Positions 1,660 through 25,332 of a DNA stretch of 64,000 bases are shown one piece after another. The position numbers and the translations under genes are program-made. The stretch is from Actinomycetota bacterium (GTDB lineage: Bacteria > Actinomycetota > CADDZG01 > WHSQ01). Location: NCBI GenBank assembly GCA_034667545.1, contig JAXDJR010000015.1, forward strand, positions 2,850-66,849, in the 5' to 3' direction. The notes under the pieces are model-generated. The model worked only from the letters and a program-made list of their open reading frames with translations. It did not search any database and was not told the DNA's origin. The stretch's first letter is position 1. Each line of letters opens with the position of its first letter.

Positions 1660-3252
1660 TTGTTGGAAAGAGGTTGGCGAGAGCCGATGAGCCCCCCACA
1701 GAAGATCGATCTCAGCGGAACCAGGTTCGGAGCGCCGGCCCGGATAAGAGAAGCCCTGAGGATAGTCACTCGATCCGTGAAACCAATCGTCGGTCCGGAA
1801 GGCAAGGTGCGGCTGTTTCTCCTGCCAGAGCGGGGAAGCCGGCCGATCCTCGCGGTCTCCGAGTCCAGCGAAGGCCTGCGCAAGGCTGTGGCGACGCGCT
1901 CATCAGCCTTGTCTAACCTCAAGCCAGTACGGGTGCATCTCGACCAGGTTTCTGGACGCACGGTGGCGGTACTCCCTCTCATCTCTCGAAGCGAGGCTCT
2001 CGGCGTGTTGGAAGTCGTTGGGCCTTCTGCAGCTGTCGACTCTTCGTGGAAGAGCTTGAGAGCCGTTGCCGACGAAGCGGGCCTGATCCTCAGGATGTTG
2101 CAAGAGGCGTCATCGTTGAGAACCCAGACCGAGTCGTCGCGCATGCTCGCAGACCTGGCTCGTGACCTCGTTAGAGCGAGATCCATCAGCGAGGCGGTTG
2201 AGGATGTAGCTCGGAGCATCTTTGAGAGATATCGAGTCCCCGTTGTGTCGTGGGCAGTACGAGCGGATCTGACCCGCCTCACCTTCCTATCCGCCCATGG
2301 CCTCTCATCTCCGGCATCGAACCGTCTCCAGACTGAGATGCGGATCATCAAGAGACTCAGTGCGACGGGACCCCAAGCGAAGGCTCAACTGCTGGATTCG
2401 ATCGCAGAGAGCGCCGGCATCGCCCGAACGTCGATGATCGACGGCCGTGACGCCCTCATCGTCATCGCAGCACAGTCATCGGAGATCGCAGCGACCGTGG
2501 CGCTGATTCAACCCCTGCTCAGGGATGTCCTTCGTCGCCTGGGGATCCTGGCACAAGCGGATCTCCACCACGAGCGCCTCGACCTTGGGATCTCGTGGAC
2601 GGCCCATGAGTTGAGAGGCCCCCTCACAGGAACGCGCGCGGTCATCGACCTCCTTCTTCAAACCGCCGACGAAGAAAGCCGGACCCAGCATCTGCTCAAA
2701 CGGTCGAGGGAGGACCTCGACAGGATGTCGGCTCTCGTCGATGGAGCATTAAGGGTGACGATGGCCGACGAGTCTGTGGCTCACCGCCCAACTCCCCTGA
2801 TGCGAGTCGTGCGAGATGCCATCAACATCTGTCGAGCGGAACGCTCGACCACCGAGATCCTGCTGCGGAGCGAGGCGGAGGTCGTGCTTCAAGCCGACGC
2901 TCCACAGCTAACTGGGGCCATAGCGAACGTGGTTCGCAACTCTCTGTGGCACGCTCCTCCGGGCTCCTCGGTGGAGATCGACGTGGTCGTTCGAGGCGCC
3001 AACGTTCAACTCCGGGTGACCGACCAGGGACCTCGTGTGTCGGGGGTAGACAAAGAGATGATCTTCGATCCCTTCGGTCGGGGCGAATCCCCACGAGCGG
3101 TGGGGCGTGGCAAGGGCCTGGGACTATTCATCGCACGCCGGGTCATAGAGGGTCATGGTGGGACAATCAAGGTTGGCTCCAGCTCGTCAGGGGCCATGTT
3201 CGTGATTGACCTACCAGTAGCCGAAGAGAGGAGACAGGCATCCGCGTCCTGA
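1660..3252 (+). CDS. Cytoplasmic sensor histidine kinase with GAF-like N-terminal region
   Basis: H-box WTAHELRGPLTG, N-box VVRNSLWHAPPGS, G-boxes DQGPRV and GKGLGLFIARRVIEGHGGTI. No clear TM segments. Start is uncertain (TTG 1660 or ATG 1687). Confidence 0.85.
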   Translation: MLERGWREPMSPPQKIDLSGTRFGAPARIREALRIVTRSVKPIVGPEGKVRLFLLPERGSRPILAVSESSEGLRKAVATRSSALSNLKPVRVHLDQVSGRTVAVLPLISRSEALGVLEVVGPSAAVDSSWKSLRAVADEAGLILRMLQEASSLRTQTESSRMLADLARDLVRARSISEAVEDVARSIFERYRVPVVSWAVRADLTRLTFLSAHGLSSPASNRLQTEMRIIKRLSATGPQAKAQLLDSIAESAGIARTSMIDGRDALIVIAAQSSEIAATVALIQPLLRDVLRRLGILAQADLHHERLDLGISWTAHELRGPLTGTRAVIDLLLQTADEESRTQHLLKRSREDLDRMSALVDGALRVTMADESVAHRPTPLMRVVRDAINICRAERSTTEILLRSEAEVVLQADAPQLTGAIANVVRNSLWHAPPGSSVEIDVVVRGANVQLRVTDQGPRVSGVDKEMIFDPFGRGESPRAVGRGKGLGLFIARRVIEGHGGTIKVGSSSSGAMFVIDLPVAEERRQASAS

Positions 3253-3269
3253 TCGTCGACGATCACAAA

Positions 3270-3884
3270 TTGTTCGCTGAAGCGATCCGCTCGAGTCTCG
3301 AAGCCCTGGGGATGGAAATCCTGGAGCTAACGCAAACCGGGGAAGAAGCGGTCGCTGCAGCACATCAGCAGCCAGACCTCGTGTTGGTAGACCTTGGTTT
3401 GCCGGATATGCACGGGGTGGAGGTTGGCAAGGCGATCCTTGCCCAATGCCCTTCTGCCACAGTGCTGGCCGTGACATCGATCATGGATCCTGCCGTGGTT
3501 CGGGAAGTTATGCGCGCGGGCTTTCATGGTTACCTCACCAAGAACACCCCGCTCGATCAATTCATCAAGTCGATCGAAGCCGCTCTCTCGGGGCAGATGG
3601 TCATCCCCCAACATCTCGCAAGCAGGGCCGCCGGACAGCGAACCAAGGAGCAGCAGGAAACCGACCTATTGGTCCGGCAGCTGACCCCTCGCGAGCTCGA
3701 GATCCTGACGTTGTTGGCTCAGGGCAAGTCGGGGGGAACGATGGCATCGGAGCTTTCGATAAGCGCGAACACCATCCGAAGCCATATCCAGAACATCCTC
3801 ACGAAGCTGCAGGTCCATTCCCGACTCGAGGCGGCCACCTTCGCAGTCAAGCACGGGATCGTGCAGGTAGAGGGGACGGGTTAA
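3270..3884 (+). CDS. LuxR/NarL-family response regulator (receiver homology extends upstream to ~3240, see findings)
   Basis: Receiver domain (DLVLVDLGLPDMHG, phospho-acceptor Asp) plus a C-terminal LuxR HTH (LTPRELEILTLLAQGKSGGTMASELSISANTIRSHIQNILTKL). The first canonical start is TTG 3270, but the in-frame IRVLIVDDH lies upstream of it. Confidence 0.85.
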   Translation: MFAEAIRSSLEALGMEILELTQTGEEAVAAAHQQPDLVLVDLGLPDMHGVEVGKAILAQCPSATVLAVTSIMDPAVVREVMRAGFHGYLTKNTPLDQFIKSIEAALSGQMVIPQHLASRAAGQRTKEQQETDLLVRQLTPRELEILTLLAQGKSGGTMASELSISANTIRSHIQNILTKLQVHSRLEAATFAVKHGIVQVEGTG

Positions 3885-3940
3885 CTCCGCGGGCTCTGCC
3901 CGGGCTCGCCTTTAGGAATGAGGCTGGCCCCCAAATGACT

Positions 3941-3968
3941 TCGGGCCGCCCCCAGGGGAGCGGCCCGA
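3941..3968. terminator. GC-rich hairpin between convergent genes (putative bidirectional terminator)
   Basis: TCGGGCCGC (3941-3949) pairs with GCGGCCCGA (3960-3968) around a 10-nt loop. It sits between the regulator stop and the LPXTG gene stop. Confidence 0.4.
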
Positions 3969-3991
3969 CAGATCAGAAGTTGAGAAGCTTC

Positions 3992-4297
3992 CTACGAAGA
4001 GATACTTCCTGGCCTCGACTTACGGAAGAGAGTCAGTCCAGCTCCGAAGGTCAGTAAACCGATCCCAAGAAACAGGATGACGTCCGCACCCGTGAAGGGC
4101 AGTGTGCCGGCTGGAGCCTGGTGGATGGAAGCAGCGTGCACAACCGGACCTGCCGGCGGTCGGTTCAGCTTCTTACCCTTGACGATTGGGGGCCCTGCTG
4201 GCTTGGAGCCCGCGGCATACGAGACGCCCACCATGGAGGCGAGAGCTAACAGGACGCCCGCCACCACCAAGATACTTTTGAAACGGCCCAAGGCCAT
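3992..4297 (-). CDS. Small secreted LPXTG cell-wall-anchored protein (101 aa)
   Basis: ATG at 4297 is preceded by AGGAGG (4305-4310 on the complement). N-terminal signal/TM segment is MALGRFKSILVVAGVLLALASMVGVSYA. The C-terminal sorting signal is LPFTG + hydrophobic stretch + RKSR tail. Confidence 0.7.
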   Translation of the reverse strand: MALGRFKSILVVAGVLLALASMVGVSYAAGSKPAGPPIVKGKKLNRPPAGPVVHAASIHQAPAGTLPFTGADVILFLGIGLLTFGAGLTLFRKSRPGSISS

Positions 4298-4480
4298 GAC
4301 GGTTCCTCCTCTATAACGGCTATTAGTCACAGGATGGGGCCACTGGACCACCCCTGCCTGCGCGTTTGAGCGTATCTTGCCACTTGACGGGCATGAGGCC
4401 ATGACATTTCCCCATATATTCGGTGCTTGCTTGCCTGTTTTGTCAGGAGATGACCCAACCGGCGCCCGGAGGGGCAGTTT

Positions 4481-5563
4481 TCAGCCGCCTCCCAGTTCGA
4501 CCAGCTGACGGCGCCACACCGCCGTTACGTTTCCCCAGGACATGTCTGAGTTGACGATGGCAGACCCTCTCTCCGACACCGCCGGCGCCTCCGAGGACAC
4601 CAGCCGATCCAGGCCCGCCGCGAGGCTTGCCGGAGAAGGATCGGAGAGAAACGCTCCTCCCTTCGAGGCCAGGTAACGTCCCAGAGGATAGGTCGTGGTC
4701 AGGGTGGGAACGCCAACCGAAACCGCTTCCGCCACCGAGTTGCCAAAACCCTCCCAGCGGGAGGGGTAGACAAAGCCGCTGGCAGCAGCGAGCAGGTCCC
4801 ACTTCTCCCTTCCGTACACCGGCGCTTCGATGGTGACCTCGGCCCCCAAACCGAGTCTGCCGATGAGGGCCGCGACGGCTTTCTTTCGCCCTCGCCAGTC
4901 GGGGCCGACCAGCCGCAGGATCGGCCGTGACCCCGGTCCCATCTGGGCGACGCCATGCAGGAGGAGATCAAGGCCCTTGTGCTCGGGGTCGAAACGGCCC
5001 ATCCACAGGACGTATCCGCCGCTCCCCCCATCCCAGCGCACGCCTTCGGGGGGCTCGACACCATTGGGGGCCACCAGCCACGGGCCGGTGTAGCCCAAGT
5101 TCTGCATGTCGTCGCGTTCTGAATCGAAGAACAGGTGCATCGCGCGAGCGCCTTGAACCAGGCTTCTTTCGAAAGCGACCCACCAGGCAAGCTTGAAAAG
5201 CCTCTTCCGGCGAACGATGTGGGGGTCGTAAGCACCACGCGGAGCCAGAATGTAAGGGACGTTCGCGCGTCTGGCGACCGCCCCAGCGGCGACATTGTGA
5301 ACGACCCAGGCGGAATGAAAGATGGCAAGGTCGGCTCCCTCGAAGACCTCGCGCAGCTTCAGTGGAACTCTTGCCCTCCGAACGCCGACATGATCTATCT
5401 GCTCCCAGACGACTGCGGGGTCCCGATCTCTGCTGTCACCCTCGCCAAATGCGATGGACACCTCGAGGCCAGAAGTCGCCAGGCCATGGGCCAAACGGCG
5501 CACGGCGCCGGTCATGCCCCCGTCGCCGACAACTGCGCGGGGGTAGTAGAAGACGATCCTCAT
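4481..5563 (-). CDS. Glycosyltransferase family 4 (GT-B)
   Basis: C-terminal Glycos_transf_1-like region with an EX7E-type motif (YPSRWEGFGNSVAEAVSVGVP). Confidence 0.9.
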   Translation of the reverse strand: MRIVFYYPRAVVGDGGMTGAVRRLAHGLATSGLEVSIAFGEGDSRDRDPAVVWEQIDHVGVRRARVPLKLREVFEGADLAIFHSAWVVHNVAAGAVARRANVPYILAPRGAYDPHIVRRKRLFKLAWWVAFERSLVQGARAMHLFFDSERDDMQNLGYTGPWLVAPNGVEPPEGVRWDGGSGGYVLWMGRFDPEHKGLDLLLHGVAQMGPGSRPILRLVGPDWRGRKKAVAALIGRLGLGAEVTIEAPVYGREKWDLLAAASGFVYPSRWEGFGNSVAEAVSVGVPTLTTTYPLGRYLASKGGAFLSDPSPASLAAGLDRLVSSEAPAVSERGSAIVNSDMSWGNVTAVWRRQLVELGGG

Positions 5564-5603
5564 ATCGCCGCTGCCCTCACCAGTGAAGGCTACCGGCAGG
5601 AAG

Positions 5604-6602
5604 CTACGAGGCGGCGCCCACCGGCGAGGCGCTGATGCGTCCGGCCTTCTCGAGTTCTGATTCGATGAATCTGTAGGTAGATCTCAGACCTTCTTCGAGA
5701 GAGACTGCGGGCTTCCACGCCAGAATCTCCCACAGCTTTGAGTTGTCGCTGTTCCGACCACGCACGCCTTGCGGCTTCGAAACATCGTGGCGCTTCTCGA
5801 TCGTCTTTCCCGCAATCTTGGCCACCATGTCCACCAGGCGGTCCACGCTCACGAGCTCGTCGGTTCCGAGGTTCAGCGGCTGCGAGTGATCCGACTGCAT
5901 CAGCCGAAAGATCCCTTCCACGCAGTCGTTCACGTGCATGAAGGATCTGGTTTGGAGGCCGTCACCCCACACCTCGATCTCTCCTCCGTCCACGGTTAAC
6001 GCCACCTTCCTGCAGATGGCCGCGGGGGCTTTCTCCCTGCCCCCTTCGTAGGTGCCGAGGGGGCCGTAGATGTTGTGGAATCGAGCGACGCGGGTGTCGA
6101 TCTTCCCTTCTTCGGTGTAGTACTGACACAGCTTCTCGGCGTAGAGCTTCTCCCAGCCGTAACCCTCTTCGGGGTCAGCCGGATAAGCATCGTCCTCCTT
6201 GAGTGGCTTTACATCGGGACTCGTTTGCAGATACATCGGATAGATGCATGCCGACGAAGAATAGAAGTGCCTGTCTGCACCGCTGACCCGGGCCGCCTCC
6301 AGCATGTGGGCGTTTATCAGGACGTTATTGCGAGCCACTTCGGCGTGGTTGGCCGTGATGTAGCCGATACCACCCATGTCGGCGGCCAACTGATAAACCT
6401 CGTGGACGTCGTTCGTGGCCTCGAGACAATTGTCATATTCCCTCAAGTCCAGCAGCAGGAACTCGTCAGCCGCCGTGGGTTCGTACTCCGCCTCTTTGAT
6501 GTCAACGCCTCGGACCCAATAGTCCCGGTCTTTGAGGTAATTGACCATGTGATGGCCGATGAACCCACCGGCTCCTGCCACCACTGCTCTTCGCTGACTC
6601 AT
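5604..6602 (-). CDS. GDP-mannose 3,5-epimerase-like NAD-dependent epimerase
   Basis: GAGGFIG Rossmann motif plus blocks I recognise from plant/bacterial GME: LAADMGGIGYI, SSSACIYP, RFHNIYGPLGTYEGGREKAPAAICRK, WGDGLQTRSF, GVRGRNSDN. Good RBS (GCAGGAGG) upstream of ATG 6602. Confidence 0.85.
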   Translation of the reverse strand: MSQRRAVVAGAGGFIGHHMVNYLKDRDYWVRGVDIKEAEYEPTAADEFLLLDLREYDNCLEATNDVHEVYQLAADMGGIGYITANHAEVARNNVLINAHMLEAARVSGADRHFYSSSACIYPMYLQTSPDVKPLKEDDAYPADPEEGYGWEKLYAEKLCQYYTEEGKIDTRVARFHNIYGPLGTYEGGREKAPAAICRKVALTVDGGEIEVWGDGLQTRSFMHVNDCVEGIFRLMQSDHSQPLNLGTDELVSVDRLVDMVAKIAGKTIEKRHDVSKPQGVRGRNSDNSKLWEILAWKPAVSLEEGLRSTYRFIESELEKAGRISASPVGAAS

Positions 6603-6647
6603 GCCTTGGAACCTCCTGCGCTTGGAATTTCGGAAAGCCTTACCCAG

Positions 6648-6803
6648 TTACTTCGGATGAAGTCCGGGATGGGTAAAGCCACAACCGTGAGTTTCTATCG
6701 TTGCCTCTGCGTACAGGGTGCCACAGGGCGCGGTCATGGCAATCAACCATCCACCGTAGGTCCCTGTCACCATCCGCAGGAGGCGTCCGTCTGCTGCGCT
6801 CAT
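6648..6803 (-). CDS. Possible 51-aa coupled small ORF (hypothetical)
   Basis: Its ATG overlaps the TGA of the upstream GT4 gene (ATGA, 6800-6803). It fills most of the otherwise unexplained 197-nt GT4-to-epimerase gap. Third-position GC is only moderate and I recognise no homology. Confidence 0.3.
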   Translation of the reverse strand: MSAADGRLLRMVTGTYGGWLIAMTAPCGTLYAEATIETHGCGFTHPGLHPK

Positions 6804-7963
6804 CGGTTCGTTGTTGGTCCGCCGACGACCTTCGAGTAGACGGCCTCCAGGCGTCGCAGATGGGCCTCCGGGGTGAACTCGGCAGCTGCTCTCTCGAGCG
6901 CCGCAGAACCTGCTTCGAAGCAGAGCCGGTCGTCGGTAGCAAGCGCCTTCATCTTGGCAGCGAGGTCGTGAGGATCGCCGCGCCGGCACATGAATCCCTC
7001 GCCGGAAGAGACCAGTTCCGGCAGACCGCCGCCTTCCGTGACCAGAAGCGGTCGTCCGGCGGCCAAAGCTTCAAGGGCGGCGAGGGGAGCATTTTCGTCC
7101 CACAACGAAGGAAGGACGAAAAAGCGTGATCCCTGAAGCTCCGCCGCAACCTGGTCCCCGGCTAGCTGCCCGAGAAAGTTGGCATTCTGCAGGCCCCTTT
7201 CGGCGGCGAGGTCTTCCAAGGCGGGCAGCGCCGGTCCGTCGCCGCAGATATGAAAGGGAGGGTCCCCGGCCAGGCTTAGGGCCTCCAGCAGGACGTCGAC
7301 GCCTTTCTCGCTCGAAAGCCGACCGAGATAGATCCCGTAGGCGCCCGGCACGGCGCTTCCCGCATGATGATCGGTGAAGTTACGGACCACATCAACGCGT
7401 GATCCATCGAATCCCCAACTGATCATTCGATCGTGCATGAACTGGCTCGGAGTTATGTAGGCCGCCACCTTGTCATCGGTGTGAAACATGAATCGGTGGA
7501 CCCAGAGTGACGAGGCGTAACTCGCTGCCTGCTTTCCGTCGGAAAAGCAATGATGCAGAACCGCGTTCGAGTAGTTGCCTCCTTCGCAGCGATGGCAAAG
7601 CTTGCCTTCGGTGAACATGTAACCGTTGGGGCATCTCAACCTGCAGTTATGTACGGTCATCACCAGCGGGATACCAGCGCGTTGCGCCTCCAGATGCACG
7701 GCAGGGCCGAGGGCCGGGTACGCGTTGTGGAGATGGATGACGTCGGGGCGGAAGGATCGAATGACCCTCCGCAGATCCCCTCTGTCGTGAGAAGACGAAG
7801 CCGTCATGAGGACCGCCGTCGAAAGCCCCCCACCCAGCTCCTCGTTACGGCGACTGAACAGCTCGACCGCGTGCTTCCCCTTTAAGAGCTGGATCTGCTG
7901 CCCGACGTACCTATCCTCGCCGCCCGGCAAACGGTAGAAGCTGTGGGCTATCAAGACTCTCAC
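6800..7963 (-). CDS. Glycosyltransferase family 4 (GT-B) with Cys4 insertion
   Basis: RLSSEKGVDVLLEAL...GDGP...LPSLWDENAPLAALEALAAGRPLL is a typical Glycos_transf_1 region. The N-domain carries CX3CX11CX2C. Confidence 0.9.
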   Translation of the reverse strand: MRVLIAHSFYRLPGGEDRYVGQQIQLLKGKHAVELFSRRNEELGGGLSTAVLMTASSSHDRGDLRRVIRSFRPDVIHLHNAYPALGPAVHLEAQRAGIPLVMTVHNCRLRCPNGYMFTEGKLCHRCEGGNYSNAVLHHCFSDGKQAASYASSLWVHRFMFHTDDKVAAYITPSQFMHDRMISWGFDGSRVDVVRNFTDHHAGSAVPGAYGIYLGRLSSEKGVDVLLEALSLAGDPPFHICGDGPALPALEDLAAERGLQNANFLGQLAGDQVAAELQGSRFFVLPSLWDENAPLAALEALAAGRPLLVTEGGGLPELVSSGEGFMCRRGDPHDLAAKMKALATDDRLCFEAGSAALERAAAEFTPEAHLRRLEAVYSKVVGGPTTNR

Positions 7964-8048: not shown

Positions 8049-9737
8049 CTACTTAGGTGCCGGTAGGTCAGCCTGGGACTGGGTGTCGTCCGGATCGAGG
8101 CTCTTGCCTCCGCCTGAGGATTGCCGCGTGGTTGCCGCGCGCGTCTCTTCTCTAGTGGCGCGAGCATCACGCTTGGGCAGATCTTGGTAGTAGGAGTAGT
8201 AGCCGGCGTGGTGACGGTAGGCCCGGGCACGAGACTTCTCCAGGTTGTTGATCACGATGCCGATACGGCGGGCTTGCAGTTGGTCCAGCTGCTCGCGAAC
8301 GTCGTCGGCAGCGGCACGAGTAGACACCGCAGGGTCCACCACGAGCAAAACACCGTCGCTGTGCGGAAGAAGAGAGGCAGTGTCGGCAACCAGCAGGATG
8401 GGGGCCGCGTCCACGATCACGAAATCACTCCGATCACGCAAGTTATCCAGCACTTTCCCCATCGCCTCGGATCCGATGAGCTCTGCTGCATTGTCACGTG
8501 CGCCGCCGCTGAACAGGATCTGCAACTCGTCGATAGAGGAGGGCACTAGCGCGCGGTCGATAGTTGTCTGACCGGTCAGAACCGTCGCAAGTCCGATCGG
8601 AGAGGAGCCTCCGAAGAACTCGTGCAGCCTCGGCTTGCGCAGGTCGGCAGAGAGCAGCGTGACTCGTTTCCCGGCTTGAGCGAGAGCCACAGCCAGGTTC
8701 GCTGCGGTAGTCGTCTTGCCTTCCCCTTCGAATGCACTCGTGACCAAGATCACCTTGGCACCGGTGCGGGATGCCGCGAAGAGCACCCCCGCGCGAAGGG
8801 TCCGATAGGCATCAGCAGCAACCGACTGAGGCATCGATGACGAGAGCAGCACCGGAACACCACGTCCTTGCGAGCCGCGTACTTTTGGAACTACGGCCAG
8901 CACCGAGGCTCCGGCGTGAGCTTGCAACTCTGCCCGGTCCGTGAAGTGCTCGTCCAGACGCTCCCGGAGGAACGCGACCCCTATGCCGAGGGCGAACCCT
9001 ACGAGCACCGCCAGCAGCATGTTCTTGATGAGGCTGGGGCTCGAAGGTGCGGACGGCAGCTCGGCAGGCGTCGTGATATTGCCTACCTGAACGCTGCTGG
9101 CGGGAGTGATGTTGGCGATCTGCCCCTGGAGGAGAGTCTTCCTGTCGCGGAGCGAGTTCTCCTTGTTGTTAAGACTCGCCAGGATTGCCGGATCCGTTGT
9201 GCTAGTGATCTGGTTGGTGACATTTTGAATCTGCGAGTAGAGACGCTTCACGCGCAACTGCAACGGTTGGATCACCGTCTGGACGGTCTGGACCGCCTGT
9301 TGGGTGCGGTACTGAAGGTACGCGGTCGCGAACCCCGCAGCGATCTGCTGGGCCTCAGCAGCCTTCGGTGAGGAATAGGAGATCTGAAGGATCTCGGTGT
9401 TGGTGGGCACCGTGACCGCAAGATTCTGCAACAGCGTCTTGGTGCTCTCCTGTAGCGAAAGATCCTTCAGGACGAGGGAAGCCACGGTCGCAGAAGAAAC
9501 TAGGTTCTTCTCGGTGTCCATGTTGGGGGGTACCGGCTGTCCCTGTTGGATAGCCGTCAAGGAAAACGGTTGCACTTCGACTTGCGCCTGAGACGTATAG
9601 ATCGGGGTTTGCTGGAACGTGAACGCCAGAGCCGACAGGATGACGACTGCAGCGATAGCGAGGACGGACCACTTGCGGTATCTCAGAACCTGTAGGTAGT
9701 CGTTCAGATCGCTACCGGCGCCACCTGCTGAACTCAT
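8049..9737 (-). CDS. Polysaccharide co-polymerase / tyrosine autokinase (Wzz domain fused to CpsD/Wzc-like BY-kinase)
   Basis: Two TM segments flank a long coiled periplasm-like Wzz region. Walker A is EGEGKTTTAANLAVALAQAG and Walker B is FVIVDAAP. A C-terminal tyrosine cluster reads YRHHAGYYSYY. Confidence 0.9.
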   Translation of the reverse strand: MSSAGGAGSDLNDYLQVLRYRKWSVLAIAAVVILSALAFTFQQTPIYTSQAQVEVQPFSLTAIQQGQPVPPNMDTEKNLVSSATVASLVLKDLSLQESTKTLLQNLAVTVPTNTEILQISYSSPKAAEAQQIAAGFATAYLQYRTQQAVQTVQTVIQPLQLRVKRLYSQIQNVTNQITSTTDPAILASLNNKENSLRDRKTLLQGQIANITPASSVQVGNITTPAELPSAPSSPSLIKNMLLAVLVGFALGIGVAFLRERLDEHFTDRAELQAHAGASVLAVVPKVRGSQGRGVPVLLSSSMPQSVAADAYRTLRAGVLFAASRTGAKVILVTSAFEGEGKTTTAANLAVALAQAGKRVTLLSADLRKPRLHEFFGGSSPIGLATVLTGQTTIDRALVPSSIDELQILFSGGARDNAAELIGSEAMGKVLDNLRDRSDFVIVDAAPILLVADTASLLPHSDGVLLVVDPAVSTRAAADDVREQLDQLQARRIGIVINNLEKSRARAYRHHAGYYSYYQDLPKRDARATREETRAATTRQSSGGGKSLDPDDTQSQADLPAPK

Positions 9738-12080: not shown

Positions 12081-12899
12081 ATGATCGATACCCAGGTCCT
12101 TCGCCGGGCGCGGTTCCGAAGCAAGATCTTGCGACGCCCCACGGTTTGGGCCAGGCACCGTGGGATACAGCGACACGATGCGATCTTGGCGAGCTATCCG
12201 CGATCGGGCACTACGTGGATGCGATTCCTCCTCTCTCAGGCCTTGTCGGGCCAATCCTCCGAGTTCAAAGCGATCAGAGGAATCGTTCCGTACGTGGGCC
12301 GGCACAGGCACGCGCTATCGATCCTGCCCGGAGGCGGCAAGCTTATGTACAGCCACGATCTGCTTAGCAAAGACGTCACCGACAGGGCCATCTACGTGGT
12401 GAGGGACGCGCGCGATGTTGCCCTTTCGGAATTCAACTGGCAGAAGCGCATCGGGGTCTACGAAGGCGAGCTCGATCCGTTCTTAAGAGACTTCGTGTCG
12501 GGTCGGGGAAGCCCGTTCGGTTCGTGGGGGGCTCATGTCGACGGCTGGTTTGACGCCGATCGGATCGCCGATGATCGTCTGAAGGTTGTGAAGTTCGAAG
12601 ACCTCAAGAAGGACGCGCCCGGCGTTCTGGCATCCGTACTCTCGTTCCTGCGCGTGACGGTGCCCGAGGCTGAGATCGCCCAAGTGGTGGAGAGCAATTC
12701 GGTCGAGATGATGCGTCAGAAAGAGGATCGCGCGCCAGAGGGCTCCTTCAAGAAGCGAGTGGTCAAACGGAATGTTCGCTTCGTGAATGCGGGGTCCGTG
12801 GGTAAATGGCAGAGAAACCTGAACCCCACCCAAGAACAGCTCATCGAAGAAGCCTTCGGATCGCAATTGCAGCGGCTCGGCTATGCGCTTCACTCGTAG
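12081..12899 (+). CDS. PAPS-dependent sulfotransferase (Sulfotransfer_1-like)
   Basis: 5'-PSB loop YPRSGTTWMRFLL and 3'-PB motif YVVRDARDVALSEF. Confidence 0.85.
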   Translation: MIDTQVLRRARFRSKILRRPTVWARHRGIQRHDAILASYPRSGTTWMRFLLSQALSGQSSEFKAIRGIVPYVGRHRHALSILPGGGKLMYSHDLLSKDVTDRAIYVVRDARDVALSEFNWQKRIGVYEGELDPFLRDFVSGRGSPFGSWGAHVDGWFDADRIADDRLKVVKFEDLKKDAPGVLASVLSFLRVTVPEAEIAQVVESNSVEMMRQKEDRAPEGSFKKRVVKRNVRFVNAGSVGKWQRNLNPTQEQLIEEAFGSQLQRLGYALHS

Positions 12900-14649: not shown

Positions 14650-16212
14650 GTGGACGAAACCCCGGGAGTAGAAGACCTAACGCAGGAATCCGCCGCCGAT
14701 GTCGCGACTCTGGCCAAAGGCGGGGCCCTGCAGATGGTTGGTCGCGTCAGCTCTCGCATCCTTGGCTTCGCGTTCATCGCCGTTGCAGTACGGATCTTGG
14801 GGACCAGCAGATATGGGCTGTTCCGAGAGGTCACGCAGGTCCTGTTGATCGCCGCCGCGCTGGCCCCCGGTGGGTTCCAGTTCGCAGCCGTTCGATTCAT
14901 CGCCCGAGCACGCGCGTTGCACCGGCCGGGGGCCGTGCGAGGGTCGGCGACCGTCGCGGTATGGGGCGGGGCAACTGTCTCCACCTTGGTCTTTATCGGC
15001 CTGCTCATATTGGCTCAGCCGATCGCGGATCACTTTGCATCAGGCGCCACGAAGCAAACGGACTTGGCGCATCTCTTGCGGCTGGGGGCACTGTTCGTGC
15101 CGCTCTACTCGATGACTCTGGTGCTCCTTTACTGCACGCAGGGTTACAGAACGCTGGTTCCGACCACGACGGTGAACGATGTGGGATTGCCGGCGGCGCG
15201 CTTCGCCCTGGGAACCATCGCGATCCTGGTAGGGCTCGAGGTTGCGGGATTGGTGGTTGCCCTCGACGTGTCGGCGGCACTGGCTCTGCTCGGAGCGTTG
15301 TGGTTCTACAGAAAGCTCCTCACCGAGGAGGAGAAAGTGGCGACGCCGGAGCGCGAAGTGGGGCCGATCGTGAGATTCGCTCTCCTGTTGGGGGCCTCCA
15401 ACCTATTCAGCACCCAATCGCTGGGGCTCGGCATCATCCTGCTCGGGATCTATTCGACCGATCGCAACGTCGGTTTGTTCGCGATCGCCCTCGCATTGCA
15501 AGCAGCGGGCGGTGTCTTTCTGCAAAGTCTGGTCGGGATCTGGGCTCCAGTCGTGACCAAGGTTTACGAAGAGGGGGACATCGCGCGCTTGCAGTCTCTT
15601 TACCAAGCGATCACGCGATGGATCGTGACGCTGGCCTTCCCCGTATACGCAGCGTTGATGGTGCTCCCGGGCTTCTTCGGTCGTTTGCTGGCCGGTCACA
15701 ATGGAGCCGACGCCGCTCCCCTGATCGTGGTTCTTGCGCTTGGAAATATCTTTTACGCCGGGACGGGACCCTCGGGCCACATCCTGAACATGACGGGGCG
15801 ACCTCGCGTCACGCTCATCAACTCGATCACGGCCGTCATCCTCTACATCATTCTGGGCGCGATCCTGGTGCCGCGCTATGGGGCGATAGCCATGGCAGGA
15901 GTCGACGCCGGAATCACCGCGGCGATCAACCTCACCGTTGTGTTGGAGGGACGCATCCTCGTCGGCGTCCACCCCTTTGGGAAGTCCTTCCTCAAACCGT
16001 TGGGCGCAACGGTGGTCTTTGCCCTATTCCTGTTGTTGTGGAGAACCGTCCTTGGCACGGGACTCGCCGTCGAGGGGGCCGGGTTGGTCGTCGGGGTGAT
16101 CATCTACCTGGGGATCCTGGCGAAGCTGGGGATGGACCCAGAGGAACGGTACGTGTTTGGGCGGATCAAACAGCGGATCCCCTTCCTCGCCCGGCGAGGC
16201 AGAGGTCGCTGA
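14650..16212 (+). CDS. wzx: Oligosaccharide/polysaccharide flippase (MOP superfamily, Wzx-like)
   Basis: 520-aa protein with about 12-14 TM helices. The N-terminal LAKGGALQMVGRVSSRILGFAFIAVAVRILGTSRYGLF is typical of polysaccharide biosynthesis (Wzx) proteins. Confidence 0.85.
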   Translation: MDETPGVEDLTQESAADVATLAKGGALQMVGRVSSRILGFAFIAVAVRILGTSRYGLFREVTQVLLIAAALAPGGFQFAAVRFIARARALHRPGAVRGSATVAVWGGATVSTLVFIGLLILAQPIADHFASGATKQTDLAHLLRLGALFVPLYSMTLVLLYCTQGYRTLVPTTTVNDVGLPAARFALGTIAILVGLEVAGLVVALDVSAALALLGALWFYRKLLTEEEKVATPEREVGPIVRFALLLGASNLFSTQSLGLGIILLGIYSTDRNVGLFAIALALQAAGGVFLQSLVGIWAPVVTKVYEEGDIARLQSLYQAITRWIVTLAFPVYAALMVLPGFFGRLLAGHNGADAAPLIVVLALGNIFYAGTGPSGHILNMTGRPRVTLINSITAVILYIILGAILVPRYGAIAMAGVDAGITAAINLTVVLEGRILVGVHPFGKSFLKPLGATVVFALFLLLWRTVLGTGLAVEGAGLVVGVIIYLGILAKLGMDPEERYVFGRIKQRIPFLARRGRGR

Positions 16213-16422: not shown

Positions 16423-17925
16423 ATGCTTAGTTCCTCACAAGGGTCCTGGTACCGAAGGACCTTGCCGGGCGTTAATCCGGCGCGGGCCGCGGGAAACGCG
16501 GTGATCGCGATGACGGCATTGGGAGCCGGTGTCGGCATCGCTCTGGGAAGTAAGTGGGGGCTGGCGATCGCCGGAATCTCCCTCTTGTTCGCAGCGGCGA
16601 GCGTGGGCTTGTTCCAACTCACCATCCCTCGGTACGCGTTCGGGTACATGGCTATCGAACTACCGGCGATATTCATCTTGATAGCAAGTCTTGGTCTTCG
16701 GGCACGCACAGCGGAGGACCTCGCGGCCAATCCGTTGGACTTCGTCGGCTTGCTGCGCCTTGCCAGCACGGGAATCGCTTTCATGCTGGGGGCCATCGCG
16801 TGCATCTCCGCGACGCGCGATACGACCGAGACCGTGACGAACAGGCCGCTGCGCATCTATATCTGTTACGCGCTCGTGGCCTCGATCGGGATCTTTGCCT
16901 CCGTGAGCCCGGCCCTCACGGGTTACCGCGCCTTCGAGGTGATCGCCGCGATCGTGATGATCGCAGGCGCTTACCGAACCGCCGGGAAAGAAGCTTTGCT
17001 TCGCCTGGAAGGGTTGCTCTATTGGTGGATACTGATCCTCGTTGGCACCGTCTGGGTTGGAGTGGCAGCGTTCCCAGCCCTGACCGTCCAGCACATCAAC
17101 AGTCCGATCCCATACCAGATCCAAGGCGTCTATCCGGGGGTCACCTCCAACACGCTCGGCGAGCTGGCCGTCCTGCTGATCTTTTGGTCTGTGGGCCGGT
17201 TGCTGGCACCCGGGGTCGAGAGGGGCCCCAGGCGTCCGGTTGCGTGGGCGGTCGCGGCCTTTGGATTCATCACGTTGATGGGGGCCCAGTATCGAACTGG
17301 TTACGCGGCCGTGATGCTTGGATTTGCGATATTGCTGTTCCTGCGCGGCCGCAAAGTCCTTGCCGGGTTCGGCGTCATCGTGGTGGCTGTCGGGACCATC
17401 ATCGGATCGAGAGTCGCGACGCAAGCTGCGCCGCTTCTCTTGCGGGGGCAGAATAGCTCGCAGGTCAGCAACTTGAATGGACGTCTGAACTGGTGGGAGC
17501 TCGCCATCCCGATCTGGAAGAAATCCCCCATCATCGGAGGTGGCCTTCGTACCGCCAGCCGGCTGCTCGTCTTGGGACAGTCAGGCTTCCAGAACACCAG
17601 CACCGTCCACAGCACGTGGGTGGAAGCGCTCGTCGGGACGGGAGTGCTTGGAACTGCCGCCCTTGCCATCTTTCTGATGATTACGATGCGCCGGGCTTTC
17701 CTGACTGCGCTGCGACCGTACGGAAGGATCGTCCCCCTTCTCGCCCTCAGCACGCTTGCGGTGAGGAGCTTCACTGGGGATACCTTCGAGAGCGGTGGTC
17801 TTTACTGCTTGCTCACGCTGGTGTTCGTGATGGGTCTACGGGATCAGTACTTCGTTCGACCGAGGGCGTCAACCCGCATCAGCTCATCCGGTCACGCCGA
17901 GCGTGTTCCCGTGGGAGTCGACTAA
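16423..17925 (+). CDS. wzy: O-antigen ligase/polymerase family membrane protein (Wzy-like)
   Basis: 500-aa polytopic membrane protein. A Wzy_C-like block (STVHSTWVEALVGTGVLGTAALAIFL) follows a large loop. Confidence 0.8.
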   Translation: MLSSSQGSWYRRTLPGVNPARAAGNAVIAMTALGAGVGIALGSKWGLAIAGISLLFAAASVGLFQLTIPRYAFGYMAIELPAIFILIASLGLRARTAEDLAANPLDFVGLLRLASTGIAFMLGAIACISATRDTTETVTNRPLRIYICYALVASIGIFASVSPALTGYRAFEVIAAIVMIAGAYRTAGKEALLRLEGLLYWWILILVGTVWVGVAAFPALTVQHINSPIPYQIQGVYPGVTSNTLGELAVLLIFWSVGRLLAPGVERGPRRPVAWAVAAFGFITLMGAQYRTGYAAVMLGFAILLFLRGRKVLAGFGVIVVAVGTIIGSRVATQAAPLLLRGQNSSQVSNLNGRLNWWELAIPIWKKSPIIGGGLRTASRLLVLGQSGFQNTSTVHSTWVEALVGTGVLGTAALAIFLMITMRRAFLTALRPYGRIVPLLALSTLAVRSFTGDTFESGGLYCLLTLVFVMGLRDQYFVRPRASTRISSSGHAERVPVGVD

Positions 17926-17936
17926 CCGAGTAAAGA

Positions 17937-18827
17937 TCAGGCGATGTTCCAGCCGTCGAAGTCGTTTCCCAGTAGGACCCGCAGCCGTCGAATGTCCGAT
18001 GAGAACTCTGCTTCCAGTTCGGCGCGCAGAGAATCCGGGATAACCGCCTCGGAAGATTCGTAGACGCTCTGCGCGGGCTTGCCCAACATCTGTTTGACCC
18101 GATTGGGAACCAGGCGAGGGATCTTGACAGTAGAGAACACGCGCTTCTTGAACCAGCGACGGCTGTTCCCTACCCAGGCCGGATAGGCCAAGCGCCGCTC
18201 AGATGTAAAGAACTCCTGCTCCAGCACCTCGGACTTCCAATCAGCGCGCACGCCGAGGAAGGAGTAGACGCGCTCGAGAGTTTGTACTCGAGTCGAGCGC
18301 AAAGCCTCCGAAGTGATGATGAGCATCTGATCGGTGCGGAAATGCGAAAGATATTGATCCAGCTGCATCGCGTACTTGCTGAAGTTGATGTAGTCGGGAT
18401 TCGTTTGGACCGCCTGAGCTAGGGGCGCGGTTTCGGTGCCGAAGGCCACGTTGTGAACGTAGTGAGAGCGAAGGCGATCTATCGGATTGCGCACCACGTA
18501 TATGAGGCGCGCCTCGGGAAGATAGCGCGCGATGAGCTCTGCAGAACCTGAATAGCGGGGAAACTTGGTGTAGCTGGTTGAGGCCTCACCTACTGCGGCT
18601 ACCCCGGGACCGGCGTCGGCAAAGAGGCGCTGATACCAGGCGAAACCTCGCTCCCAGTTGATGCCGGCGGTGAAGAAGTCCAGCTCTTTGATGTCGGGCA
18701 TGAAGACCTGCGGATGCGACCGCAGATATTCGTAGAGGCTCGTGGTTCCCGACTTCTGAGCGCCAATAACGAGAAAGTCGGGAAGCCGGAGCTTGCCTGT
18801 AGGTGTTGGATAGTCCGAGGGGCTCAC
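17937..18827 (-). CDS. PAPS-dependent sulfotransferase
   Basis: 5'-PSB FLVIGAQKSGTTSLYEYL and 3'-PB YVVRNPIDRLRSHY. The GTG start overlaps the stop of the upstream sulfotransferase (GTGA). Confidence 0.85.
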   Translation of the reverse strand: MSPSDYPTPTGKLRLPDFLVIGAQKSGTTSLYEYLRSHPQVFMPDIKELDFFTAGINWERGFAWYQRLFADAGPGVAAVGEASTSYTKFPRYSGSAELIARYLPEARLIYVVRNPIDRLRSHYVHNVAFGTETAPLAQAVQTNPDYINFSKYAMQLDQYLSHFRTDQMLIITSEALRSTRVQTLERVYSFLGVRADWKSEVLEQEFFTSERRLAYPAWVGNSRRWFKKRVFSTVKIPRLVPNRVKQMLGKPAQSVYESSEAVIPDSLRAELEAEFSSDIRRLRVLLGNDFDGWNIA

Positions 18828-19855
18828 TCAGAACCGTCGCTTGGCGAACTTTCCGACAGAGAGCGGAGATGGTTTCCCGCCTTACGAGTTGCCAGCGAGT
18901 AGCGCAACATCAGCGGCAGCGTCAACGAAGTCACGAGCAGCTTGTCTCGTCCGGGCATCTCGTCCTTCCATCTGTTGTCCTCACGAACCGGCACCTGACC
19001 AAGCCGGAACCGATCTGGGTTGCCGGACACAGTGTGGTTGCCGCCGAGGCTAACCGTGTGATCGTCGGCAAAAGGCAGTTGCGCGCCTGCATCGCCGACC
19101 AGGGATGTGATTGCGCGAACCAACTCACGGGGACGCGAGCAGAAATCGTGGTAATCGATCAGCATCGAGCGATCTGGTCTCTGAGCTCTGCGAACAGCAT
19201 CCGCCGCGAGATTTCGGCGGATCCATTGAAACGCACTGGCCGAGATCCCGGTGGGTGCCATAACCGCAGGCTGGTTGCGGTCCGGGTTGGCTTTCACCTT
19301 CGATTGCGAGTAAGCCATGGCGCGAGGATCACGTACGAGGTGGACGAAGAATGGTTCGACGTTGCGGACCGAGCCCAACAAAGCTGCGTCCCAGGGGCGC
19401 TTGGAAGAATCCACGATGACCGAGGCTCCAGTCACTGCTTTGATCGCCTCATACAGATCGCCCATCAGTGCACCGTGAGCTTGTATCTGTCCGGGAACAT
19501 TGTCCTTAGTTGTCTGATGGAGGAGCTGCCACGTACGCCAAGTCCCCGAGATCTGCCTCTGACGTGCCATGACAGCCCGGGCCGTTGCAGAGGGCTCTGA
19601 GCCGGCAACCTTGTCGAGGACACGGGACCAGATCTCACAACTCTCGAACGACTTCCCACACCCGCAGAATCGTCCTTGGTCGAGCCGCTGCCACAGAAAA
19701 CGAAGCTCTCCCGCGGAAAAGAACCCTGCGACCTCGTTCAGGACGTTGTCCAGCACTGTGCTGCCGCAGCGGGGGGCGCCCATGATGTAAAGCACTGTGA
19801 TCGGCTCATCCCGCGCCGGGGACGCGGCCGAAGCGTGGGGGTTGGGTCCGTCCAT
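18824..19855 (-). CDS. Sulfotransferase family protein (Sulfotransfer_3-like)
   Basis: P-loop-like 5'-PSB LYIMGAPRCGSTVLDNVL and 3'-PB HLVRDPRAMAYS. Confidence 0.8.
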   Translation of the reverse strand: MDGPNPHASAASPARDEPITVLYIMGAPRCGSTVLDNVLNEVAGFFSAGELRFLWQRLDQGRFCGCGKSFESCEIWSRVLDKVAGSEPSATARAVMARQRQISGTWRTWQLLHQTTKDNVPGQIQAHGALMGDLYEAIKAVTGASVIVDSSKRPWDAALLGSVRNVEPFFVHLVRDPRAMAYSQSKVKANPDRNQPAVMAPTGISASAFQWIRRNLAADAVRRAQRPDRSMLIDYHDFCSRPRELVRAITSLVGDAGAQLPFADDHTVSLGGNHTVSGNPDRFRLGQVPVREDNRWKDEMPGRDKLLVTSLTLPLMLRYSLATRKAGNHLRSLSESSPSDGSE

Positions 19856-23014: not shown

Positions 23015-23872
23015 CTAGTCGCGTCCATGCGCCGCCAACTGTTTGACGAGCAGGAAAACGAAGCGCGGATTACGGTACAGGTACCTCTTCCACAACCTGC
23101 GAGGCTCGGAGCAGAGACGGAAGAGCCACTCGAGCCCCATCCGCTGCATGATGCTCGGAGCCTGCTTCTTCACGCCGGCAAGGAAGTCAAAAGCGGCGCC
23201 GACCCCGACCATCACCGCAGGAACCTTCCCGCGGCGAGCTGCCATCCAAAGCTCCTGCTTAGGCGTACCGAGACCTACGAATACGATCCCCGCGCCCGAG
23301 TCGATGATCTCCTGATCCACTTGGCGATCTTCCTCTTCGGTCGGGGCCCTGAACGGCGGAGCGAACCGATACACCACCTGGAGTTTCGGAAAACGAGCTT
23401 TTAGGTTGGCGATGAAGGACTCGAGCACGTCCGGAGTGCCGCCGTAGAAACCCACAGGAACTCCAGCCTCGGCCGCGCGCTCACACAGGATCGGGGTGAG
23501 GTCGGGCCCGTACACCCGGGTGGCGTCCCGTAGACCGAGCAGCTTGAGACTCCAGACAAGCGGCATACCGTCAGAGGTGACGAGATCGGCCAGGTTCATG
23601 ATCTGCTGGAAGGCTTCACTGGCGCGTGACTCCATCACGTTGTTGACCGAGGCCACGCAGACGTAACGAGACTCGCGTTGCTTGCCCCACGCGACGATGC
23701 GAGAGGCGGCATCTTCATAGTTGGTGCGATCCACACGCATCCCAGCGATGTGACGAGACTCGAGAGGCCGCGCCTCGGAGACGACGACCGGCGATCGTAG
23801 GTCTGGGCTCGACGGTCCCAGATCGGGTGAGGTGCTCAAGATCAGTACGCGCCCTTCCCGCCCAGGACGCAT
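23015..23872 (-). CDS. WecB/TagA/CpsF family glycosyltransferase (GT26)
   Basis: VCVASVNNVMES...DGMPLVW...GVPVGFYGGTPDVLESFIANLKARFPKLQVV...GLGTPKQELWM are typical of the family. An alternative TTG start at 23839 lies 2 nt after the upstream stop. Confidence 0.85.
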   Translation of the reverse strand: MRPGREGRVLILSTSPDLGPSSPDLRSPVVVSEARPLESRHIAGMRVDRTNYEDAASRIVAWGKQRESRYVCVASVNNVMESRASEAFQQIMNLADLVTSDGMPLVWSLKLLGLRDATRVYGPDLTPILCERAAEAGVPVGFYGGTPDVLESFIANLKARFPKLQVVYRFAPPFRAPTEEEDRQVDQEIIDSGAGIVFVGLGTPKQELWMAARRGKVPAVMVGVGAAFDFLAGVKKQAPSIMQRMGLEWLFRLCSEPRRLWKRYLYRNPRFVFLLVKQLAAHGRD

Positions 23873-25332
23873 CCAAGTGTCTTGAAGAGGATGTAAAGGT
23901 CCAGGGACAACGACCAGTTCTCGATGTAGAAGGCATCCATACGAACCGCCTCTTCAGCGGCGACATCGCTCCGGCCGTTGGTTTGCCACCAACCGGTGAT
24001 GCCCGAGCGGATCTGGTGCCGAGCTTCCATGAGCTGGGGATTGGCCGCCACCTGCTCAGCCGGCAGAGGCCGAGGCCCCACCAGGCTCATGTCGCCGATG
24101 ATGACGTTCAAAAGCTGAGGGATCTCGTCCAGGCTGAAGCGCCGCAGGAACCGGCCGACTGTGGTCAGGCGAGGGTCCCTCTGGAGCTTGAAGAATGCGT
24201 CGGTTGTCTTCACAGACATCTTGTCGGCATTCGGGACCATTGTTCTGAACTTGCACATGGTGAAGAGACGTCCATCCTTGGTCACACGCTTATGACGGAA
24301 CAGGACCGGGCCTCTCGACGACACCGCGATCGCAGCGGCTATCACCAAGCAGATCGGCAGCAGCAGCAGAGACAGCAGCGTGGCGGCAAACACGTCGAAG
24401 ACTCTCTTCACGAACGCTTGGGGGCCGGCGAGTCGCACGGGCCGAAGGGAGAGCGTGAGGATCGATCCGAGCGGCTGCACCGAAACGCGTGAGGTCAAGA
24501 TGTTATTCAGGTTCGCCGTGACACGCACGGCCACTCCCTCTTGGCGGGCTGCCTGGACCGCCAGCACCATCTCCGAAGAACCCACCGCGGTGGAAGCGAC
24601 GAAGATGCAATCAGCGGAATACTCACGGACTACCTCGCGCAGATTCTCGATCGTCCCGATGACCGGAAGCCCGTCTGGTGACGCCGTGGGACCGGCGACG
24701 CTAACGAAGCCCAGTGGCGAGAATCCAAGGCCTCGCTCTTGAAGAAGATGTGCGAGGCGGCCCGCCTCATGGTTCGTGCCCACGACGACCGTGCGCAACG
24801 CCAAGCGGCCGGTTGCCCGCAGCTTTGCGAGGCGCCAACGCCACGCCCGCCGGGTCAGAAGCTCGCCGAAGACCGCGAAACCCCAAAGAAGCGCCACCCA
24901 CTCGCGAGAGAACGCAGTTTGGGACCAGAAACTAGTAGCGATTATCCCGAGGATGCCGACGCTTGCGGCTCCCACGATCCGTTGCAGTTCGTCGACCGCT
25001 GAGATGCGGTGCGGCGAGTACAGAGAAAAGACGCGGAAGATCAACACCCACAGCAACGGTGCGGTCACGCCGAGCGTGATGTAAGGACCGTGGATCGTGG
25101 CTTGAAAGCGAACCAGATAGGCAGCGATGAACGCTGCCGACAAAACCAGGGCATCGGAGATGACTAGCCCTGCGGTGACCCGCCGATACATCCGGCGGAC
25201 ATCTATGCCGGAGCTGGAGGAATCCTCGGGCGCATCAAGCTGGATGGCAAGGGGGTCGGACTCGACGTCCTGAACGATCCGAAGGCCGTCATTGACCGTA
25301 GTCGAGTAAGCCTCGCCGGGGGTCTCTATCAT
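23842..25332 (-). CDS. Polyprenyl-phosphate sugar phosphotransferase (priming glycosyltransferase, WbaP/CpsE-like)
   Basis: N-terminal TM bundle, central Rossmann-like domain, and a C-terminal bacterial sugar transferase domain (KRVFDVFAATLLSLLLLP...CKFRTMV...DPRLTTVGRFLRRFSLDEIPQLLNVIIGDMSLVGPRP). Confidence 0.9.
   Translation of the reverse strand: MIETPGEAYSTTVNDGLRIVQDVESDPLAIQLDAPEDSSSSGIDVRRMYRRVTAGLVISDALVLSAAFIAAYLVRFQATIHGPYITLGVTAPLLWVLIFRVFSLYSPHRISAVDELQRIVGAASVGILGIIATSFWSQTAFSREWVALLWGFAVFGELLTRRAWRWRLAKLRATGRLALRTVVVGTNHEAGRLAHLLQERGLGFSPLGFVSVAGPTASPDGLPVIGTIENLREVVREYSADCIFVASTAVGSSEMVLAVQAARQEGVAVRVTANLNNILTSRVSVQPLGSILTLSLRPVRLAGPQAFVKRVFDVFAATLLSLLLLPICLVIAAAIAVSSRGPVLFRHKRVTKDGRLFTMCKFRTMVPNADKMSVKTTDAFFKLQRDPRLTTVGRFLRRFSLDEIPQLLNVIIGDMSLVGPRPLPAEQVAANPQLMEARHQIRSGITGWWQTNGRSDVAAEEAVRMDAFYIENWSLSLDLYILFKTLGCVLGGKGAY

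Follow-up and report, generated by a model that had tools for sequence, protein, structure and literature searches.

A bacterial GDP-mannose 3,5-epimerase homologue in a Wzx/Wzy polysaccharide locus that also encodes sulfotransferases

GDP-mannose 3,5-epimerase (GM35E, also called GME) is one of few enzymatic routes from common D-sugars to rare L-hexoses. Here we analyse a homologue of this enzyme encoded on the minus strand at 5604-6602 of a 64,000-nt stretch of DNA (hereafter the window), which covers positions 2,850-66,849 of contig JAXDJR010000015.1 (C15) in assembly GCA_034667545.1, from an Actinomycetota bacterium. The plant enzymes (structures 2C59, 2C54, 2C5A, 2C5E and 8SG0) function in ascorbate biosynthesis, whereas the window gene lies in a polysaccharide locus. 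Sulfotransferases embedded in a Wzx/Wzy-type exopolysaccharide (EPS) cluster are reportedly found in the synechan (xss) cluster of Synechocystis PCC 6803, which belongs to a phylum other than that of the window; to our knowledge, the synechan cluster contains no GM35E. The only biochemically characterised bacterial GM35E, described in 2019, is MfGM35E from Methylacidiphilum fumariolicum SolV (I0K0X9), and further actinobacterial cases are BlmG, which has 42% identity to the Arabidopsis enzyme and is thought to supply L-gulose, and the GM35E of the A201A pathway (PMC6678494). We propose that the ORF at 5604-6602 is probably a functional NAD-dependent GM35E (EC 5.1.3.18) dedicated to precursor supply for a Wzx/Wzy surface polysaccharide, with an L-hexose in the repeat unit and sulfation that depends on 3'-phosphoadenosine-5'-phosphosulfate (PAPS).

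The window protein shares with the plant enzymes the catalytic and substrate-binding residues, the fold as predicted and the tree clade, and differs from them in lacking their N-terminal extension of about 25 residues and their C-terminal tail. Like MfGM35E, it is a bacterial, stand-alone protein of about 330 residues with the same motifs, as far as these are described in PMC6678494, and a surface glycan has been suggested as the destination for the product of MfGM35E too; the latter, however, is a thermophile enzyme from Verrucomicrobiota with no sulfotransferases reported nearby, whereas the Actinomycetota gene has sulfotransferases in its locus. BlmG (bleomycin) and the A201A enzyme are actinobacterial family members that supply L-gulose or L-galactose within natural-product clusters, in contrast to the Wzx/Wzy polysaccharide locus of the window, and Streptomyces and Geodermatophilaceae sequences fall in a different subclade of our tree.

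The ORF is intact and encodes 332 amino acids. In a phmmer search of all PDB sequences, its top five matches are the plant GM35E entries 8SG0, 2C59, 2C54, 2C5A and 2C5E (E about 1e-100, 337-340 bits), with GDP-L-fucose synthase as the next family at 97 bits; judged by these alignment scores, the match to plant GM35E is far beyond chance. The Arabidopsis enzyme (AtGME) is 49.5% identical over 311 aligned columns. The first-pass annotation of this DNA had listed five nearly invariant blocks shared with plant GME, and all five are found, as LAADMGGIGYI, SSACIYP, RFHNIYGPLGTYEGGREKAPAAICRK, WGDGLQTRSF and GVRGRNSDN, aligned column for column with the Arabidopsis (2C59) and Myrciaria (8SG0) enzymes in the phmmer alignment. 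Residues 10-16 read GAGGFIG, in agreement with the GxxGxxG/A motif of extended short-chain dehydrogenases/reductases (SDRs); the window protein has the canonical GxxGxxG, whereas Arabidopsis GME has GxxGxxA. Pfam returns generic SDR domains only, namely Epimerase (E 2e-45) and GDP_Man_Dehyd.

A 2022 review of the family (PMC8787198) lists the residues that define GM35E in Arabidopsis numbering: the S143/Y174/K178 triad, the C145/K217 acid/base pair, R306, which acidifies the cysteine, R243, which binds the diphosphate, and the conserved N203. According to the same source, the Cys/Lys pair sets GM35E apart from GMER, which has Cys/His, and from GalE, which has neither. Mapped through the AtGME alignment, all eight of these residues are kept in the window protein: S117, Y148 and K152 form the triad for oxidation and reduction at C4, C119 and K191 the acid/base pair, and R283, R219 and N177 correspond to R306, R243 and N203, respectively. 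The catalytic Cys, Lys and Tyr that had been singled out for checking are thus all in place, as C119, K191, Y148 and K152. It should be noted that an Arg also occupies the R306 column in many outgroup rows of the tree alignment, so that this column taken alone has no discriminating power. A comparison with a second gene copy, on contig C95 of the same assembly, gives a ratio of nonsynonymous to synonymous substitution rates (dN/dS) of 0.034 at dS 1.7, values that indicate strong purifying selection on both copies and an ancient split.

A phylogeny against other SDR epimerases, proposed along with the original assignment, places the window protein inside the GME clade together with the plant enzymes. 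The maximum-likelihood tree (IQ-TREE, LG+C20) comprises 74 sequences, of which 58 are GME-like rows and 16 other SDRs. The rows include the window protein, the second copy, close metagenomic homologues, diverse representatives of 50%-identity clusters, named genome sequences of many phyla and the two plant structures 2C59 and 8SG0, together with SDRs at about 30% identity that NCBIfam classes as Fcl-like, UXS/ArnA-like and GalE/RmlB-like; it was built without MfGM35E. The 58-row clade that holds the window protein and the plant sequences is split from the 16 other SDRs with support 100/98. Within this clade the acid/base columns carry Cys in 56 of 58 rows and Lys in 55 of 58, and three Fcl-like outgroup rows carry Cys and His, matching the expectation for GMER.

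The predicted structure points in the same direction. The AlphaFold2 model has a mean predicted local distance difference test (pLDDT) score of 93.4 and a predicted template modelling (pTM) score of 0.92, and it superposes on 2C59 and 8SG0 with TM-scores of 0.92-0.93. In a Foldseek search of the PDB, the best 14 matches are all GM35E chains (TM 0.92-0.93, best root-mean-square deviation 1.4 Å), followed by GalE (E 1e-26). As far as sequence, residues, tree and modelled fold reach, these data establish membership of the GM35E family.

Two other family assignments were tried and rejected, NCBIfam itself being without a GM35E model. GDP-L-fucose synthase (GMER/Fcl) resembles the window protein in belonging to the extended SDRs and in using a catalytic Cys on a GDP-hexose, and GMER also performs a 3,5-epimerisation. 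It differs in its His base and in an additional 4-keto reduction, whereas the window protein has Lys191 at the base position, lies outside the Fcl-like group and scores 128 bits to NF047922 against a cut-off of 500 bits. UDP-glucose 4-epimerase (GalE) fails likewise, with 69.8 bits to TIGR01179 against a 262-bit cut-off, and with the Cys/Lys pair present.

Bacterial GMEs had been called uncommon in the first-pass annotation, which is wrong at the sequence level. A word-indexed search at E<1e-30 yields at least 8000 clusters at 90% identity from at least ten phyla, and an exhaustive search at the same threshold yields 1084 clusters at 50% identity. Among the matches listed, hundreds are 73-80% identical to the window protein, many of them from metagenome-assembled genomes (MAGs) named "Actinomycetota bacterium", and many of the listed clusters already carry the JGI name GDP-D-mannose 3',5'-epimerase. 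When each species is represented by a single genome, the homologues, at 43-65% identity, come from Acidobacteriota, Gemmatimonadota, Chloroflexota, Myxococcota, Cyanobacteriota, Planctomycetota, Verrucomicrobiota, Bacteroidota, Pseudomonadota, Actinomycetota and Saccharimonadota, and a clean gap separates them from other SDRs at 32% identity or below. In a panel of 60 genomes of relatives, 11 have the gene (own genome counted), a patchy distribution of the kind that accessory genes in variable glycan loci should show. The window protein is thus an added member of a known and widespread family, and its annotation is solid and unsurprising.

For the substrate, the products, the consuming glycosyltransferase, the L-sugar that is incorporated and the sulfation of that sugar, we infer the following scheme, modelled on the enzymes of plants and Methylacidiphilum. 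A tightly bound NAD+, assisted by S117, Y148 and K152, would oxidise C4 of GDP-alpha-D-mannose. C119, with a pKa lowered by R283, and K191 would then take and return protons at C5 and C3 of the resulting 4-keto intermediate, and its reduction would release an equilibrium mixture of GDP-beta-L-galactose and GDP-beta-L-gulose. A flanking family 4 glycosyltransferase (GT4), or the family 26 enzyme (GT26) that shares an operon with GME in relatives, could draw one of these two L-hexoses into the repeat unit, and up to three PAPS-dependent sulfotransferases might decorate the polymer afterwards. GDP-L-galactose or GDP-L-gulose is therefore likely to serve as a donor in the EPS locus, to judge from sequence, defining residues, tree and modelled fold.

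The genes around GME agree with this role, and the claim that it lies inside an EPS locus holds, with Wzx, Wzy, Wzz/kinase, priming transferase and glycosyltransferase genes in the same block. Immediately downstream, after 40 nt, lies a GT4 gene (4481-5563, minus strand; Glyco_trans_1_4, Glycos_transf_1 and Glyco_trans_4_4 in Pfam), the orthologue of which also follows the second GME copy on C95; it may be considered a candidate user of the GDP-L-sugar. Upstream are a second GT4 gene, identified by domain search (6800-7963, minus), and a gene for a Wzz chain-length determinant fused to a P-loop domain of the BY-kinase type (8049-9737, minus; Wzz, AAA_31, CbiA). The block continues with a Wzx-type flippase (14650-16212, plus; Polysacc_synt), a Wzy-type polymerase or O-antigen-ligase-like protein (16423-17925, plus; Wzy_C), a GT26 glycosyltransferase of the WecG/TagA family (23015-23872, minus) and a priming polyprenyl-phosphate sugar-phosphate transferase (23842-25332, minus; Bac_transf and CoA_binding_3). 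An ATP-grasp and kinase decoration module and a DUF4012 protein complete the locus, which is flanked on each side by histidine-kinase/LuxR pairs, two in all. The three sulfotransferases noted earlier are indeed present, at 12081-12899 (plus; Sulfotransfer_1), 17937-18827 (minus; Sulfotransfer_1/Sulfotransfer_3) and 18824-19855 (minus; Sulfotransfer_3).

Sulfotransferases thus lie within the Wzx/Wzy cluster, and the genome provides for PAPS supply: C70:2022-8273 encodes, in a row, ATP sulfurylase, a type-I phosphodiesterase, adenosine 5'-phosphosulfate (APS) kinase and a PHP-domain protein that may be a phosphatase of 3'-phosphoadenosine 5'-phosphate (pAp). A sulfated glycan with L-galactose (L-Gal) or L-gulose (L-Gul) is plausible from this gene content. 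The more specific sulfated L-galactose-type glycan put forward in the first-pass annotation is speculation, the same-family GME operon also occurring without nearby sulfotransferases, and the analogy drawn there with the sulfated L-galactans of red algae has no backing from the genes present, which make up a Wzx/Wzy cluster for a repeat-unit heteropolysaccharide with about four glycosyltransferases, not a homogalactan system or a galactan synthase. A literature search turned up no relevant description of bacterial sulfated L-galactose polysaccharides or of actinobacterial sulfated-EPS clusters.

At the gene itself, a Shine-Dalgarno sequence, AGGAGG, can be read directly at 6617-6612 (minus strand), nine bases 5' of the start codon ATG at 6602-6600. 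A consensus scan for promoters and terminators around GME gave none above background. A gap of 197 nt (6603-6799) separates GME from the upstream GT4 gene, the other operon junctions being tight.

Gene order in relatives ties GME to the same kind of locus. The congeneric genome G001 has an identical GME-GT4-Wzz-ATP-grasp order, and an operon of Bac_transf, WecG (GT26) and GME, in which WecG lies immediately upstream of GME, is kept in the same-family genomes G009, G029, G002 and G030 and in the metagenomic relatives P0040 and P0005. The same operon occurs among the loci L092 (GCA_026003015.1, BPGL01000001.1, 7723-20630), L106, L107, L108 and L110; in L092 the two genes share 4 nt at the WecG stop and GME start. 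Glycan-locus genes lie near GME in 24 of 50 wider-clade loci against 7 of 29 outgroup loci, and WecG in 8 of 50 against 0 of 29, both counts being lower bounds from single-sequence phmmer searches. Two naturally fused proteins, in which the GME domain is joined with a NodZ-like fucosyltransferase domain (P0138) or a GT2 domain (P0243), point to a tie between the clade and GDP-L-sugar transfer. Further fusions join the GME domain to methyltransferases and to UDP-glucose/GDP-mannose dehydrogenase (P0141, P0196), the latter two hinting that part of the clade forms a GDP-uronic-acid branch not yet described; all the fusion proteins considered (P0141, P0196, P0138, P0243, P0146 and P0124) are representatives of 50%-identity clusters.

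The link to sulfation is more variable. In the P0040 locus (GCA_026003015.1), GME is directly followed by a stretch in which five sulfotransferases are interspersed among Wzy, Wzx and glycosyltransferase genes, and one of the five in L092, from the same assembly, belongs to the Gal-3-O-sulfotransferase family. In G009, G029 and G002, no sulfotransferase lies near the GME operon within flanks of about 4-10 kb on each side, and of 50 wider-clade loci, drawn from many phyla, only 3 have a sulfotransferase no more than 8 kb from GME, against none of 29 outgroup loci. These counts make sulfation a variable addition rather than a partner of GME, and we reject a general coupling of the two. A sulfotransferase directly adjoins the GME homologue in two loci from unrelated phyla, L014 (8969-10066, a Candidatus Sulfotelmatobacter MAG) and L053 (5740-6672, an Anaerolineales MAG).

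The supply of the substrate deserves closer attention. As first reported, the window lacks GDP-mannose supply genes: none of the four NTP_transferase genes of the genome (a 2.43-Mb MAG in 184 contigs, 91% complete, with 2.6% estimated contamination) and neither of its two PGM/PMM genes is on C15. Three other contigs carry relevant genes. C24 encodes a phosphomannomutase/phosphoglucomutase that, at 610 bits, narrowly misses the 618-bit cut-off. On C70, about 1.3 kb downstream of the PAPS operon, lies a gene for a GDP-mannose 4,6-dehydratase (GMD) that is truncated by the end of the contig and scores 456 bits, with a cut-off of 415. C52 has an Fcl-like gene (298 bits, under the 500-bit cut-off). 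With these genes present, the organism would be expected to make GDP-mannose.

Several observations weigh against a dedicated epimerase of GDP-mannose in this locus. No convincing ManC was found in the assembly with PF00483, GMPPB_C or the mycobacterial man1P_GTase model, nothing scoring above 90 bits: the four NTP_transferase genes are GalU, GlmU and two weak candidates (C51:49445-50386 and C52:9308-10009) at 83-88 bits, against a mycobacterial ManC cut-off of 440 bits. A search of the genome for a type-I phosphomannose isomerase likewise found none. Moreover, a search of 20 other same-family genomes, each of a different genus, recovered ManC-like genes from every one, at 169-315 bits to NF052502 (284-315 bits in 18 of the 20) and often as two genes per genome; G009 and the contig of P0005 each have one about 3 kb away from GME. 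Both assemblies of the genus, our own genome and the congeneric G001, lack a ManC-like gene despite having GME and GMD. This absence is weak evidence because the MAG is only 91% complete and its GMD gene is cut by a contig end; the missing ManC, which is the main loose end, may reflect incomplete assembly of variable glycan loci. In addition, GME is relocated in the window, 16 kb from the WecG/priming pair to which it is operon-linked in relatives. Lastly, some clade members are fused or adjacent to a UDP-glucose/GDP-mannose dehydrogenase, and part of the GME clade may act on uronic-acid forms.

This last point underlies a reading in which the clade and the chemistry are as proposed and the physiological substrate or product differs, for example GDP-mannuronic acid converted into GDP-L-guluronic or L-galacturonic acid, or GDP-L-gulose as the only product used. 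Beyond the fusions, the gene directly after GME in P0005, a relative with 79% identity, encodes a dehydrogenase; GM35E always makes both L-Gal and L-Gul, so that the glycosyltransferase chooses between them (PMC6678494), and use of L-gulose only has been proposed for BlmG in bleomycin biosynthesis. However, the window contains no dehydrogenase, the single UDPG/MGDP dehydrogenase of the genome being on contig C120, and the substrate-contacting residues named for the Arabidopsis enzyme are all kept, which makes such a variant rather unlikely here. Less probable still, with perhaps a slim chance, is a true GM35E with a product destined for a wall-linked glycan, a glycolipid or protein glycosylation, the sulfotransferases acting on other residues or molecules. 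The scarcity of sulfotransferases near GME, both in the flanks of the same-family operon and across the wider clade, would fit this reading, as would the DUF4012 protein and the separate decoration cassette in the locus; against it, Wzx, Wzy and Wzz/kinase in the same block point to a polymerised repeat-unit polysaccharide, and the closest relative on a long contig has its five sulfotransferases interleaved among the same genes. It is scarcely credible that an SDR of another kind (GDP-fucose synthase, GalE or UXS) has been misassigned here, or that the protein is an inactive relic in a cell without GDP-mannose: Fcl is the best match in an NCBIfam without a GME model and the assembly has no clear ManC, yet the Fcl score is far under its cut-off with Lys in place of the His base, tree and predicted fold group the protein with GM35E, dN/dS indicates strong constraint, and GMD in the same genome likewise requires GDP-mannose.

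The present case shows the family to be a frequent, patchily distributed accessory gene in the surface-polysaccharide loci of uncultured soil bacteria, often within a conserved operon of priming transferase, GT26 and GME and sometimes beside several sulfotransferases. Were the product confirmed, bacterial glycans with L-Gal or L-Gul, possibly sulfated, would be far more widespread than the structural literature suggests, and glycoengineering would gain from such loci a source of mesophilic GM35E enzymes and of L-hexosyltransferases to match. More speculatively, and with rather low confidence, we suggest that this lineage might make a heavily sulfated repeat-unit surface polysaccharide containing L-Gal or L-Gul, in which GT26, whose gene is translationally coupled to that for GME in relatives, would be an inverting L-hexosyltransferase that takes GDP-beta-L-Gal or GDP-beta-L-Gul as donor in the second assembly step. 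We know of no bacterial EPS for which heavy sulfation and L-Gal or L-Gul have been described together, and such a donor specificity, if true, would be new for the GT26 (WecG/TagA) family.

The second GME copy lies on a contig of 3.9 kb, C95, is 90-91% identical at the amino acid level and is cut by the contig end after 318 residues. C95 is collinear with 2623-6563 of the window at about 75-77% nucleotide identity. Two other contigs, C127 (corresponding to window positions -830 to 1545) and C179 (upstream of the window), extend this shadow of the left end of C15, the three together being collinear with it at 75-87% nucleotide identity. Two origins are conceivable for these shadow contigs, the co-binning of a related population and an old segmental duplication. 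The contig pairs C79/C77, C147/C146 and C102/C87 behave in the same way as C95 and C15. Finally, the genome has a second nucleotide-sugar cluster at C52:4762-10995, with an Fcl-like SDR, glycosyltransferase-like ORFs, a 231-residue NTP_transferase and a GalE/RmlB-like SDR.

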